From Octopus sinensis (Eukaryota), in NCBI RefSeq assembly GCF_006345805.1, contig NC_043007.1, positions 5,394,001-5,458,000 of the forward strand: DNA of 64,000 nt, given 5' to 3'. The notes beneath the pieces were generated by a model. The model worked only from the letters and a program-made list of their open reading frames with translations. It was not told the origin of the DNA and did not search any database. How positions within the stretch are numbered: the stretch's first letter is position 1; the number at the start of each line of letters is the position of its first letter. Shown here in pieces: positions 1,481-30,618 of this stretch. The translations under genes were made by a program, and so were the position numbers.

Positions 1481-2704
1481 TCATTTCCTTGAAGCATCTG
1501 ATAAATGATTTTCTGTGAATATTGGCTGAGATGTTCTTCTTGAATTAACGAAAGATGATTGCACTGTGAAACTAGAATGTTCCGTAAAAGTGATAAAGTT
1601 TCTTGCTTTCATACATCTAAAAGTCTTAAGCATTTCTTTTCTGAAGTCTGAAATAACTGCAAAGTATATGATATCTGAAGAATACTTACAGTACATGACC
1701 ATTGTGCTAATTGCATAAAGTAATGAGAAAGTACAGGTGTTTGTGGAATTGTTTACCTTGTCCCATGGCTCATAAATCAGAAAGACCAAGCTCATGGGAG
1801 CCTGAGAAGCAATAAAAGCTGTGTTAGTGTAAAAGACCAATTTTAAATTTTGCATTGCTCGCATTTTGCGAGTGTTAATGGTCGCTGGTTGTGTTGAGTT
1901 ATTGAAAAGTTCCTTGTTGGCATAGTGTTGCCTTAGTTTGAGAACAATTAGAATATTACAAGTGAAAAGAAAAAGAGTTGGAATGTAACTTAGAAAAAAT
2001 ATTTCCAAAATAACCCAATAACGGTAAAATTGCTTGTAAGTAGAATTGATAATACCACAAGTTGTAATGAGAATAGTCGTGTTGGTTTCTGGTTTGGTCT
2101 TGTATTCCAAGCCATGTCCATATAGTACATGAGATTCTAGCAATATACAAATGGTTAACAGAATTATAATTTGCTTCTTGGAACCGTTTTCATTATTTGG
2201 ATTCCTCATTAAGATTGGCTTCATGACAGCAGTAACTCTTTGAATTGAAATGAGTACAAGTAACCAAGAATTAAAGATCCCAACTGGGTCAAATAGCCAT
2301 TTTGTAATCTTACATACAATTTGATTCTCTGTGTAAAGATTAATATCCAAGGAATAAAGGTATTTTAAAAGTAGAGAGAAATCAATGATGAATAGATTGG
2401 AAAGGGCTAAAGCAATAAGTTCATTTCTGATGATGTTTCTCTTTAATTTCGGTCTCCACAGAATTACCAAAGACAAACAATTTGTAACATTTCCCACAAG
2501 AATCAAAATGGGAGGAAAATAGAGCCAAATTATATCCGAAATATGTGTCAAGTTGCTTAAACAACATGATTTCCAGACAATATTAGGGATGTGTTGAATA
2601 ATGTCGTCAATGCAACACAGGGATTCAGTGAGGTTCCTTATTTCTGAATAATTCCACAGTTGACCATTTTCTGTGATATATTGAAACGAATAGTTGCACT
2701 CCAT
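1481..2704 (-). CDS. Rhodopsin-class (class A) 7TM GPCR, 407 aa, single coding exon; resembles FMRFamide/peptide-receptor-like expanded (putative chemosensory) receptors
   Basis: Uninterrupted ORF with seven hydrophobic segments: TM1 PPILILVGN, TM2 LALSN, TM3 CK...SWLLVLISIQRV, ECL2 Cys, TM5 YIP...CNILIV, TM7/H8 IIY...FRKEM. First ATG is at 2704; the track start at 2749 is a TTG inside a polypyrimidine tract. An acceptor-like TTTTAAG ends at 2720. Confidence 0.9.
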   Translation of the reverse strand: MECNYSFQYITENGQLWNYSEIRNLTESLCCIDDIIQHIPNIVWKSCCLSNLTHISDIIWLYFPPILILVGNVTNCLSLVILWRPKLKRNIIRNELIALALSNLFIIDFSLLLKYLYSLDINLYTENQIVCKITKWLFDPVGIFNSWLLVLISIQRVTAVMKPILMRNPNNENGSKKQIIILLTICILLESHVLYGHGLEYKTKPETNTTILITTCGIINSTYKQFYRYWVILEIFFLSYIPTLFLFTCNILIVLKLRQHYANKELFNNSTQPATINTRKMRAMQNLKLVFYTNTAFIASQAPMSLVFLIYEPWDKVNNSTNTCTFSLLYAISTMVMYCKYSSDIIYFAVISDFRKEMLKTFRCMKARNFITFTEHSSFTVQSSFVNSRRTSQPIFTENHLSDASRK

Positions 2705-3923
2705 TTGGTAGCAATTTTTCTTAAAAGAGTGAAAGAAAATTCTTTTCAAAGGAAAAGAAAAAATACTTTATTGAATGGAATCTTCAACTAAATATTAAAT
2801 GAACTCAGGTAATATTTCAGCTGACTGTAAATGAGTTGTTGTAATGTTCATGCTTTTCTCAAGAGTATTTCATATGCAGAGTGAAATAGTTTTAATCAAG
2901 CTTGAAACAAGACCAGAAATGGAATTTACTTTTTAATATCGTCCACAAAAAATTTAAACCTTCTGTAACCATATTTCTTTTGAAGTATGCTTCCTCTGCT
3001 TCAATTAAGCTTGAAAATAATGAGGAATCTTGTAAAATTATTGTCATTATTAAACAGGTGTTGAAATTTTGATGGAAGGAGTTATCTCTGATCCCTTTAA
3101 ATATGAATTTTATATCATCAAACCAGGTGGGTTCGTAAAGACATAAAGGCCTTTTTGATTAAGTTTTAGTTGAAATATCTTTACCCTGCTTCTTTTTGGG
3201 TAAAGAAACAAAACAAACCAAAAAAAAAACAAACAACCAAACTAGTTTTGATTAATAAAAGCCACCTAAAGTCACAAGTTTCAGTTTGTAAGACCTCCTT
3301 TTCTTTTATAATTATTATTTAAGATTCCTCAATCTCAGCAAACAATATTACAAACACAGGTGTGCGAAGAAATGCTCAAATATTTCATTATAACCAGGAT
3401 AATATTTGAACATTATCATATTCCTCCAGGAGAAAAAAAAAAACCCAAAACAATCAGTTAATTCTCAGGTTGACTAAATTAAACAAGCAAAATATTCTCG
3501 TAGAAAATATTTATAAAAACAGGTAAAGTTTTCAATAATTAAAATAATACTTCCAGAAAGTATTTTTGCTTATGTCCTTTCTTTGAGAGGAATGATAAAT
3601 AGCCGAAAGGTATATCCGATTATCATTTTTTGAAATAATGTATATTTAAGAAAAATTTTAGTAGTCACCAAAATCTGTATAATTGCAAAGACATTTCCAT
3701 ATAAATTCCAGGCAAATTTCTACAACTATATCAGCTGTGGATGCGAATATATAAATAACATGAATAAACAGATGAAAATGAATTTTGAAAGAATTTCCCA
3801 TATATTCCTTCTTATATCGAATTCCATGAAAATGTTTTTCTTCATCACAAAATTTATATTTTACCAGTAAAACTCAGCATTCATAATATGGCTTCTCAGT
3901 TATTTCTCGTCAGAACTCAGTAA

Positions 3924-26496: not shown

Positions 26497-26911
26497 ACTC
26501 TTTACTCTTTTACTCTTTTACTTGTTTCAGTCATTTGACTGCGGCCATGCTGGAGCACCGCCTTTAGTTGAGGAAATCGACCCCGGGACTTATTCTTTGT
26601 AAGCCCAGTACTTATTCTATCGGTCTCTTTTGCCGAACCGCTAAGTGACGGGGACGTAAACACACCAGCATCGGTTGTCAAGCAATGCTAGGGAGACAAA
26701 CACAGACACAAAAACACACACACACATACATATATATATATACATATATACGACAGGCTTCTTTCAGTTTCCGTCTACCAAATCCACTCACAAGGCATTG
26801 GTCGGCCCAAGGCTATAGTAGAAAACATTTGCCAAGGTGCACGCAGTGGGACTGAACCTGGAACCATGTGGTTGGTTAGCAAGCTACTTACCACACAGCC
26901 ACTGCTGCGCC
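26497..26911 (-). mobile_element. CORE/MIR-like tRNA SINE (family 3)
   Basis: Reverse complement reads gtggctgtgtggtaagtagcttgc...ggttcagtcccactgcg...accttggcaa. Other copies at about 37270-37745 (+) and 48365-48730 (-). Confidence 0.85.
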
Positions 26912-26974
26912 TATATATATATATTATATATAATATATATATTATATAGATATATATATCTATATATATATATA

Positions 26975-27170
26975 GGTATATCCCGGGTTGAGTCGGGGTT
27001 AACCACAGTAAATAAGGTACTCAATACATAGCAGAGTAAATTAATTTATTATATAGAAGGAGCTTCTACAGGACTAGAAACTGTTTCATTCAAAAGAAAT
27101 CATCAGGAAGCTTCCTGATGATTTCTTTTGAATGAAACAGTTCTAGTCCTGTAGAAGCTCCTTCTATATA

Positions 27171-27176
<6 letters not shown>
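26975..27176. mobile_element. (TA)n-embedded Penelope-like mini-element ending in a 133-bp palindrome
   Basis: Palindrome spans 27044-27176, centred on AAG|CTT with one indel. The 5' part resembles 58705-58776. Confidence 0.75.
27109..27159 (+). ncRNA. Type I hammerhead ribozyme motif (mirror copy on the minus strand, about 27061-27112)
   Basis: agcttc-CTGATGA-tttcttttgaat-GAAA-cag-ttctagtc-ctg-TA|gaagct. Stem I agcttc/gaagct, stem III ACAG/CTGT, stem II ttc/gaa closed by a T-T mismatch. Confidence 0.7.
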
Positions 27177-27212
<36 letters not shown>

Positions 27213-27353
27213 TTATATATATATATATATGCATATTATACATATATATATATATATATCAGGGTGCATACAGTGATCTTGGTGCATTTAATAGTTTAGT
27301 TAATATATATTAACACACTCTCTCAAGCACACATGCTCATGCAAATGTGCACG

Positions 27354-28359: not shown

Positions 28360-28570
28360 ACCTGGGAATAGTGAGTAAAAATCTTGAGAAGAATGTGGAA
28401 CAAATAGGGGCTGCAATAAGGGTGGAGCACTTACAGAAAACAGCACTGCTAGGAACTGCTCGAATACTCCGGAAGGTGCTCGAAAAATAAGGGTGTTACC
28501 TTAGTTTACTGGTAGTGAACAGCTGACACCGTAGTAGATCTCCAGCGTTAGAAGCTGTGCAAAGGCAATA
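28360..28570 (+). mobile_element. R4/Dong LINE 3' end with (TAA)n tail
   Basis: LGIVSKNLEKNVEQIGAAIRVEHLQKTALLGTARILRKVLEK*. Confidence 0.88.
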
Positions 28571-28574
28571 ACAA

Positions 28575-28619
<45 letters not shown>

Positions 28620-29072: not shown

Positions 29073-29839
29073 AGCTACAACAACAACAACAACAACAACT
29101 ACTACTACTACTACAACAACTACTACTACTACTACTACTACTACTATTTTGAATAACAACAACAACGACAACAACGATGATAATGATAATAATCCTGTCC
29201 ACTATAGGCACCTTGCCTGAAATATTTGGGGGAGTGGGGTAAGTGAATGATATCGATCCAAGGGCTCCACTGTTTTATTGACCCCCAAAAGGATGAAAGG
29301 TAAAGCTGACCTTGGCAGAACTTGAACTCAGAGTGTAGTGATGGATGAAATGACACTAAGCGTTTCCCCCAGCAGGCTGACCATTCTGCCAGCTCGATGC
29401 CTTAGAACATTGCTAGGCATTTCGGCCCCTTCTGCAAACAATTCTACCAGCTCAACATCAGTGGCTTCGGGTTCAGAACCATGTCCAGTCCTTTTGTGGT
29501 GGTGAGGTCAGTTGATTGCTCTATTCCCAATGCTTGACCACATAATAACAAAAGGTAACTTTAATTGCAGCAGGATTTCAATACAGAATATAAAATGCAG
29601 GAACAACCATTTCTGTTATTGAAACAACCAAATTGGCAAAATTATTGAGGCTTTCGGACAAGATGTTTTGCATTATTTATTATGGTTTTATTCTTTCTGA
29701 ATTTAAATCCTTTTGACATCCTTCAGGAGTCAATAAAATAAAGTCTGGTTCTGGGGTCAAGGATGCTGACTAACCCTACCCCAAAAATAATGGCCTTATG
29801 TCAAAATCTGGAATAATAATTATCATCATCATTATTATT

Positions 29840-30618
29840 ATTGCTTTTGCACAGCTTCTAACGCTGGAGATCTACTACAGAGTCAGCTGTTCACTACTAG
29901 TGAACTAAGGTAACACCTCTTATTTTTCGAGCACCTTTCGGAGTATTTGAGCGGTTCCAAGCAGTGTTGTTTTCTGCAAGTGCTCCACCCTTATTGCAGC
30001 CCCTATTTGTTCCATGTACTTCTCGAGATTTTTGCTCACTGTTCCCAGGGCTCCGACAGTTATTGATTCTACTACCATCTTTTTCATCGACCATAACTGC
30101 TCAACCTCCCAAGCTAACCTGTCATATTTATTGACTTTTCTTTCTTCCTTATCACATACTTTGTTGTCAACTGGGCATGCTATATCTATGATCCAGCAAA
30201 GTTTGTTTTCTTTCTCAATTAAGACTATGTCTGACTTCCTATTCTCCATCTCATGGTCACACTGAATGATAAAATCCCACAGGATCTTTACATTATCATT
30301 TTCGATAATGCCTTCAGGTTTGTGGTCATACCAATTTTTTGCTCTGTCAAGTCCATACTTGTTGCAAAGTATCCAATGGACAAGCCTGGCTACATTATCG
30401 TGGTGTCTCTTATATTCCTTCTGGGCTAGTGGCGTACATTTACTGGTAATATGTCACATGGTTTCACCATTTTGTCCACAGATTCTGCGCTTTTCACTTT
30501 CTGATGTGTTGTCTATTCTGCATTTTATGTAGTTTGTTCTTAGTGCTTGCTCTTGGGCAGCACAGATTAGAGCCTCTGTTTCTGGTTTTAAATCACTTTT
30601 AGTCATCCACAGCCATCT
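29840..30618 (-). mobile_element. R4/Dong LINE 3' fragment (CCHC knuckle plus restriction-like endonuclease)
   Basis: WLWMTKSDLKPETEALICAAQEQAL, RICGQ..ET..HI...C, RHDNVA-like motif, ILWDF.IQCD, RKSDIVLI, IDIACP, KY..L, VGALG. Confidence 0.92.

Follow-up and report, generated by a model that had tools for sequence, protein, structure and literature searches.

The locus considered here raises the question of whether a loop-less palindrome that carries a hammerhead motif on both of its strands is a functional device or the product of some other process. The palindrome lies within a stretch of 64,000 nucleotides from Octopus sinensis (hereafter the window, meaning the whole of the DNA analysed), and a sequence-only reading had interpreted it as a conformational switch. 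As described below, the best overall explanation of the feature is very probably a minimal insertion of an endonuclease-bearing (EN+) Penelope-like retrotransposon (PLE), and the palindrome itself is almost certainly an inverted-pLTR stub of such an element.

Anatomy of the insertion and its hammerhead motifs

The palindrome (27044-27176, 133 nt) is its own reverse complement save for one extra base in the left arm (in the A run near 27077-27079); it has no loop, its centre lies between 27110 and 27111, and 32 perfect pairs are followed by the indel. Its earlier description as a 133-bp loop-less palindrome centred on GAAG/CTTC, with arms differing by one indel, is thus accurate. The extent then given, 27044-27176, is correct for the palindrome but not for the unit, whose left arm extends through a tail of about 68 nt to about 26973. 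The whole insertion, of which the palindrome is the core, is about 200 bp long (about 26973-27176) and is set in (TA)n. Its parts, with the basis of each assignment, are as follows.

26911..26974, unstranded: (TA)n target, left (sequence reading)
26973..27176, unstranded: whole insertion, a head-to-head pLTR pair with one tail and (TA)n on each side (same boundaries in the other printed loci; blastn to a natural parent copy)
26973..27043, minus strand: tail, about 68 nt in typical copies, running into the 5' end of the ORF in full elements (comparison of copies)
27044..27112, minus strand: long (tailed) arm, the part of the pLTR that starts at the predicted +1 and contains the hammerhead, loop III having an additional base (parent comparison)
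27061..27112, minus strand: mirror hammerhead motif, core 27106-27100, predicted cut after 27067 (sequence reading)
27109..27112, unstranded: AGCT common to both arms, the fold point and predicted RNA 5' end (parent comparison)
27109..27176, plus strand: short inverted arm, the same pLTR segment without the tail (98.5-100% identity to parent pLTRs over 68-72 nt)
27109..27159, plus strand: type I hammerhead motif, predicted cut after 27153 (sequence reading; layout matches Hydra PLE motifs)
27109-27114/27154-27159, plus strand: stem I (sequence reading)
27115-27121, plus strand: core CTGATGA (sequence reading)
27122/27133, plus strand: U-U (sequence reading)
27123-27125/27130-27132, plus strand: stem II (sequence reading)
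27134-27137, plus strand: GAAA (sequence reading)
27137-27140/27149-27152, plus strand: stem III (sequence reading)
27177..27260, unstranded: (TA)n target, right (sequence reading)

When compared by blastn with a natural parent copy, 26972-27112 was matched on the minus strand and 27109-27176 on the plus strand, and the long arm together with its tail shows 98.5% identity over 132 nt to the pLTR of one parent copy (L104). The tail of the window copy has a small ATAT insertion near 26978-26981. The extra left-arm base is absent from 28 of the 28 other printed loci and it is therefore a later mutation or a read error. No remnant of the parent ORF is present within the window.

The claim of a hammerhead on both strands is borne out, with CTGATGA starting at 27115, GAAA at 27134-27137, the predicted plus-strand cut after 27153 (the A of GTA) and the minus-strand core starting from 27106. 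The conserved core and three stems of a type I hammerhead are present, and the exact fold lies within 0.3 kcal/mol of the minimum of the 51-nt unit (probability 0.04). In the window no Rfam hammerhead match was obtained at the gathering score, and for 26900-27300 the 45 rows at E<=10 include no hammerhead, only hairpin-type chance matches; the hammerhead call is a prediction from motif reading and from comparison with published Hydra PLE motifs. In place of the usual G10.1-C11.1 pair of type I hammerheads a U-U is found here. This T-T closure of stem II, which had been raised as a caveat, is correct as a fact of sequence, but the caveat dissolves, as 14 of the 26 Hydra-clade rows in the hammerhead table of Craig et al. 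2021 (counted by eye) share it, and the U-U closure is thus a known variant and not the canonical form. The differences between subfamilies within the 51-nt motif are restricted to N7, loop II (three sites) and loop III, all of them free positions (5/5, p 0.0005-0.0013), and because of this restriction the motif fold is likely to be under selection in the parent element. The stem III region can also pair as a dimer through its central palindrome (computed energy -12.8 kcal/mol). It had further been claimed that the centre of the palindrome supplies the 5' strand of stem I; however, AGCTTC is also present in 2,193 non-palindromic copies of the parent type.

Several other features of the window may be recorded here. 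An open frame of 428 aa at 1484-2767 (minus strand) matches the rhodopsin-family GPCRs (7tm_1, E 1.2e-12) and is apparently a single-exon receptor gene. A frame of 177 aa at 29923-30453 (minus strand) has no Pfam match, and we take it to resemble the C-terminal nuclease region of a non-LTR retrotransposon. Copies of a dispersed repeat at 28410-28596 and 29813-30000 form an inverted pair that is 86-93% complementary.

Genomic copies and the parent element

The distribution of this sequence was determined in a genome of 2.7 Gb (G000). A DNA search gave 661 candidates, 40 of them scored, and the 29 loci that were printed share the same anatomy, viz. (TA)n, tail, long arm, short arm and (TA)n, between flanks that are unrelated; exact matches to a 24-nt piece of the hammerhead motif number 997. 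Palindromes of the size seen in the window (gap 96-104) number 706, versus 0 in a reversed-pattern control, and on this basis the palindromes are real and not due to chance. With a search pattern that fixes both outer ends, the numbers of head-to-head pairs are 35 for gaps of 0-30, 165 for 36-65, 474 for 66-95, 706 for 96-104 and 212 for 105-134, so that the short palindromes total 1,592 for gaps 0-30 and 36-134, some of them duplicated loci. Hammerheads in the parent context (TATAAAT, 20-26 nt, AGCTTCC) are present in 2,193 copies. The first 100 of these promoter-bearing copies have 37 neighbours within 10 kb, of which 35 are arranged head-to-head at distances of 97-7040 nt, while the two same-strand neighbour pairs (2/37) include, where seen in full, only pLTR-ORF-pLTR or short partial tandems; the part of contig C1 covered by these copies also holds 19 palindromes with gaps of 96-104. 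All 81 exact core matches on C1 (58 loci) were read, and they comprise adjacent pairs, spaced pairs with parent upstream sequence on both arms, and single arms, which stop at one or other end of the tail. The lengths form a continuum up to head-to-head pairs of kilobase size, and the 133-bp palindrome belongs to its short end.

Two further observations concern the surroundings and the spread of these copies. The flanks of three loci (L003, L027 and L032) contain, beside the same (TA)n runs, another hammerhead-like motif with a GAGC/GCTC stem II and a core change of the G-to-U type, which is likely the end of another Penelope-like family, the (TA)n runs collecting several families. Sequence of the present family is also found in runs X15-X20 under other organism codes (B, C and D), and in B and C parent-type upstream sequence is seen at the same joint.

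The parent element was reached through 288 matches with another left context, 30 of which were read: at L052 the upstream region has a TATA box, and at L040 the tail continues into an ATG. Candidate places at which an ORF follows on from the tail number 64, of which 40 were scored. Ten parent stretches were fetched. L101 and L103 have the arrangement pLTR-ORF-pLTR with direct pLTRs (spans between pLTRs of 5.4 and 4.6 kb, respectively), a further inverted pLTR being added in L101, and L104 has an inverted pLTR pair around the ORF. An unbroken full ORF was found in none of the ten, all of which have frameshifts, stops or truncations. The motifs recognised in the parent ORFs are RWR, DKT, YRDD, a CxCx5C linker, YxC..YIG (of the GIY-YIG type), CxxC and CxH; in L102 DKT is present and the GxKF/Y motif absent, and L105 has the CxCx5C linker and, in the nuclease, CxxC and CxH, lacks CCHH, and has one cysteine only inside the GIY-YIG core. 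In the Atlas the top match (0.99) is to an RT-domain cluster, and further matches have HTH_animal, RVT_1 and GIY-YIG on part of their members. Pfam searches with three pieces of the parent ORF gave no RT or GIY-YIG match, only a sub-threshold VtrA_C taken as chance; a PDB sequence search with the parent protein returned nothing under E 0.16, and its single-sequence structure model (pLDDT 37) was unusable.

The features by which an EN+ PLE is recognised are found together in this family, viz. a parent ORF with an RT plus a GIY-YIG nuclease at the C terminus (YRDD and YxC..YIG motifs; the Atlas match of 0.99), an inverted 5'-truncated copy joined head-to-head (the 35 of 37 neighbour pairs and the 1,592 short pairs) and a hammerhead in the pLTR (the 2,193 copies in promoter context). 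The parent is accordingly described as an EN+ PLE, judged from its motifs, which also point to a placement in the Hydra clade, whose insertion into (TA)n is likewise observed. Two additional elements adjoin copies of the family: L103:6976-7920 (plus strand) is a GIY-YIG ORF (Pfam E 2.8e-06) from a different type of PLE, its zinc finger being Neptune- or Naiad-like, and L108:6140-7862 is a more distant element in inverted arrangement with the same motif set (YRDD, YIG, CxxC and CxH).

The arrangement seen here corresponds to that described for EN+ PLEs, in which the unit consists of a pLTR and an adjacent inverted 5'-truncated copy, a tail being optional (Arkhipova et al. 2013, PMC3846280; Craig et al. 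2021, PMC8557442, Fig. 2 legend). The head-to-head inverted pLTRs, the junction palindrome, the tail on one arm, the AT-rich target and the TATA-like box in the pLTR are all shared with the units described in these papers. The differences are that the commonest short product here is only 66 + ~135 nt, that the tail is about 68 nt in comparison to the 30-40 bp described, and that the fold point is concentrated at one position in about 700 loci. With the Hydra clade, as presented by Craig et al. (PMC8557442), the family shares DKT, the CxCx5C linker, the CxxC and CxH of the nuclease, the (TA)n target and the U-U beside stem II, whereas it has RWR at the position of RWK, a longer unit (5.4 kb in L101 and 4.6 kb in L103, versus 'generally <3 kb') and a stem III loop of 8 nt with a central palindrome instead of 1-3 nt. 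Because its hammerhead differs from those of all 26 Hydra rows of file S2 of that paper, including the cephalopod family listed there, it would by this comparison be another family than those in that file. The minimal hammerheads of PLEs reported by Cervera and de la Pena 2014 (PMC4209133) are also of type I, located in the pLTR and dispersed in truncated copies, but their consensus has G10.1-C11.1 and little or no helix III, unlike the U-U and 4-bp stem III found here. In the open-access literature, no paper was found on this family or on a fold point at a start site.

Alternatives for the palindrome and its mirror arm

If the palindrome were a switch, as the sequence-only reading proposed, then transcripts of either strand should be able to fold either as a rod or as a ribozyme, in the manner of ambisense viroid-like RNAs. 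An intact core is indeed present on both strands, and the restriction of subfamily variation to free positions (p about 0.001) makes it likely that the motif is selected; however, the parent element, in which the motif occurs singly, accounts for this selection. For the full palindrome the rod has a folding energy of -102.9 kcal/mol versus -31.1 kcal/mol for the best fold that keeps the plus-strand hammerhead, a gap of 72 kcal/mol; the rod is the lowest-energy fold at all 5 of the transcript lengths tried, and the arm that blocks the hammerhead is always transcribed first. Due to this, the switch is unsupported, and the predicted fold of read-through RNA from the stub is a rod of 66 bp that leaves both hammerheads unfolded. 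Retrozymes and viroid-like RNAs are characterised by head-to-tail units with a hammerhead in each monomer, whereas a single head-to-head pair is seen here, with no tandem units and no sign of circles. The non-LTR retrozymes (bioRxiv 10.64898/2026.07.22.740005) are similar in having a type I hammerhead, in being non-coding and in their link to PLE pLTRs, but they are head-to-tail tandems able to release monomers. Further, opposite-strand hammerhead pairs derived from PLEs have already been described: some pairs are separated by 100-700 bp, with the two motifs on opposite strands (Cervera and de la Pena 2014, PMC4209133), and in Penelope-13_HM the hammerhead is present on both strands owing to an attached inverted copy (Craig et al. 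2021, PMC8557442). The interpretation of the motif's occurrence on both strands as an ambisense, viroid-like character is likewise unsupported, as this occurrence results from the insertion of a Penelope-like element as an inverted pair, a published structure, and we attach next to no credence to the switch.

The relationship of the two arms indicates how such pairs arise. One tail per palindrome is seen in 49 of the first 50 listed with gaps of 96-104, the remaining one having a partial tandem, and in 8 of 8 spaced pairs read on C1. At each of three subfamily sites the arms are concordant in 50/50 palindromes, where random pairing expects 25.2, 36.6 and 25.6, and the mean number of mismatches between arms is 0.74 within a copy versus 2.9 after shuffling (minimum 2.2 in 2000). 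Genome-wide, discordant arms are found in 2 of the 706 at one tested site, at which the sample splits 29:21. The exact centre, in contrast, is present in only 26 of 50 sampled palindromes. Because the arms agree while the joints vary, each pair derives from one template or one source locus, with a variable joint, and from these comparisons the mirror arm was quite probably rebuilt at each insertion. Of the earlier suggestion that the element is recent or homogenised, the recent origin stands, and later homogenisation may contribute in part to the agreement between arms; the private core change that L151 and L200 each show in both arms fits rebuilding and homogenisation alike.

Two sets of unusual junctions were also noted. 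In four insertions (G000:C3:56313971, C3:123507789, C4:106318459 and C5:91941113) a full arm is joined to a short piece after stem I, and these look as if the cDNA had folded back through its own stem I. In L040 and L063 partial tandems are present, which consist of a hammerhead, the tail, the first 110-200 nt beyond the tail and a second hammerhead that starts anew in that +1 region, an arrangement that suggests a jump to the 5' end of the RNA template.

A different possibility is that the palindrome is a non-autonomous element, SINE- or retrozyme-like, which copies itself as a unit with the enzymes of the PLE. Its high copy number, the identical centre in about half of the sample (26/50) and a further 11 rows with a one-base-shorter type of centre could be read in this manner, but identical centres are met with in all subfamilies, both arms changing in concert, the junction lengths are continuous up to kilobases, the stub is without the TATA region, and the 66-bp rod would bury both motifs; such propagation is very improbable, and the palindromic stub, which is without promoter and ORF, is likely a dead end. 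Near-perfect loop-less palindromes are also a known class of assembly artefact (chimeric fold-back reads), and contigs from public runs do not clearly bridge the palindrome centre. However, the flanks are unrelated among hundreds of loci, the tail is asymmetric and fixed, the ends fall at two defined sites, the same types of junction recur and there is a parent with an RT; all of this counts against both an artefact and a foldback or MITE DNA transposon, and each can be set aside as extremely improbable. The MITE/foldback candidate was in addition rejected as its ends are not terminal inverted repeats of equal length, the tail extending one end, with a variable interior junction and a parent that encodes an RT.

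The fold point and a proposed route of insertion

Given that the palindromes are PLE stubs, their fold point remains to be explained, since it is concentrated at one position. Per gap length there are 78 palindromes at gaps of 96-104, versus 16, 7, 5.5 and 1.1 in the remaining bins. At gaps of 105-134, just above the peak, upstream bases of the parent are found in only about 14 of 50 listed loci (by eye), and most of the listed loci have short fillers copied from the first bases of the element. The fold point is located 29 nt behind the first base of the TATA box in parent copies, and the TATA box is at a constant distance across subfamilies in which the intervening bases differ. Among the 35 shortest palindromes, only 8 are folded at a second AGCT, which lies beside the cleavage site; a 4-bp palindrome alone, or ribozyme cleavage, thus fails to explain the peak, and a fold point at the cleavage site was rejected as rare, although factors other than cleavage may keep very short insertions from being fully represented. 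From its position in the parent, the fold point is reasonably likely to correspond to the RNA 5' end. The fuller proposal, viz. that the sense RNA has its capped 5' end at the hot fold point, that stem I starts at +1 and that both arms come from one run-off sense template, is tentative, its chances being somewhat below even.

Copying of the cap is established for LINEs and would leave an extra G. Among 118 loci, G precedes +1 in 15 of the 21 informative non-parent arms (C in 4 and T in 2), these being arms with A at +1 and of neither the parent type nor the two common centre types, with four parent-type A rows dropped, in a sample partly selected for odd junctions. Parent copies have T, A or C before +1, and G in none of the parent subfamilies seen. 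The extra G is as expected from a copied cap, but it could also have been templated by stem I of the cDNA, the base after the 3' strand of stem I being C. Against a start set by the TATA box is the report that the Penelope element of D. virilis has an internal promoter that is TATA-less (Schostak 2008).

Alternatively, a splice acceptor, or local sequence by itself (AG and then stem I), could determine the position. Parent copies are pyrimidine-rich and then have TAG or AAG directly before CTTCC, an intron end maps to helix I in the D. virilis Penelope, and two arms that begin with CTTCC, if joined bluntly, would likewise give the canonical centre. However, spliced RNA would bring a constant upstream exon, whereas the base before the extra G varies (G, T or A), and the second AGCT of the same unit is rarely used. 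We regard this explanation as unlikely; were it correct, the hot spot would have another mechanism, but the element would keep its identity. Two single cases may be mentioned here. From L064:1650 onward one arm begins at the predicted cleavage site after a short A run. At L101:5660 one contig of run X7 has a loose end about 100 nt upstream of the hammerhead, facing away, which possibly represents a divergent transcript in this one contig and which presumably is adaptor-like by its resemblance.

Returning to a start behind the TATA box, insertion would proceed as follows. The parent would be transcribed from the TATA promoter of its pLTR, with the first base of hammerhead stem I as +1. The GIY-YIG domain would nick (TA)n, and the RT would start at an internal site, one or other end of the tail, as the anole element does in vitro. 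If this start occurred in the first pLTR of the RNA, then the RT would run off at the 5' end after ~135 or ~66 nt, and the free cDNA end, with its self-complementary AGCT, would become linked through microhomology to the mirror arm, a few templated bases often serving as filler. However, if the start were in the downstream pLTR of a tandem RNA, then the same process would give head-to-head pairs of kilobase length. The second arm would come either from a second priming event on the same RNA or from a fold-back copy of the first cDNA. For Poseidon of the green anole (Frangieh et al. 2024, PMC11167929), two internal RT start sites define the tail in vitro, both DNA strands are nicked and extended, and the main template is uncut RNA, which fits the intact hammerheads here; that element belongs to another clade, and its ORF starts inside the hammerhead, whereas here it starts about 45 nt after the tail. 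In its relevant passages that paper leaves the inverted arms unexplained. Arkhipova et al. 2013 (PMC3846280), who described the inverted pLTRs, junction palindromes and optional tail, proposed self-priming on an antisense template and left the matter open.

The feature in the window is ordinary transposon debris with a structure that is already published, and it serves as a caution that back-to-back hammerheads in animal genomes are usually Penelope stubs and not viroid-like switches. Read-through of palindrome loci could nevertheless yield a 66-bp hairpin RNA feeding silencing or editing pathways. In addition, the stubs are a large natural data set on the formation of the inverted arm of PLEs, a step described as unresolved (Arkhipova et al. 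2013, PMC3846280; Craig et al. 2021, PMC8557442): the evidence of hundreds of junctions converges on a single defined stop, which lies behind the TATA box and away from the ribozyme cut site, the hammerheads having been inserted uncut. If the run-off interpretation is correct, then some 1,600 stubs would record how the head-to-head inversion is built, in a manner other than the self-priming on antisense RNA proposed in 2013, and an open step of PLE transposition would become approachable from genome sequence.
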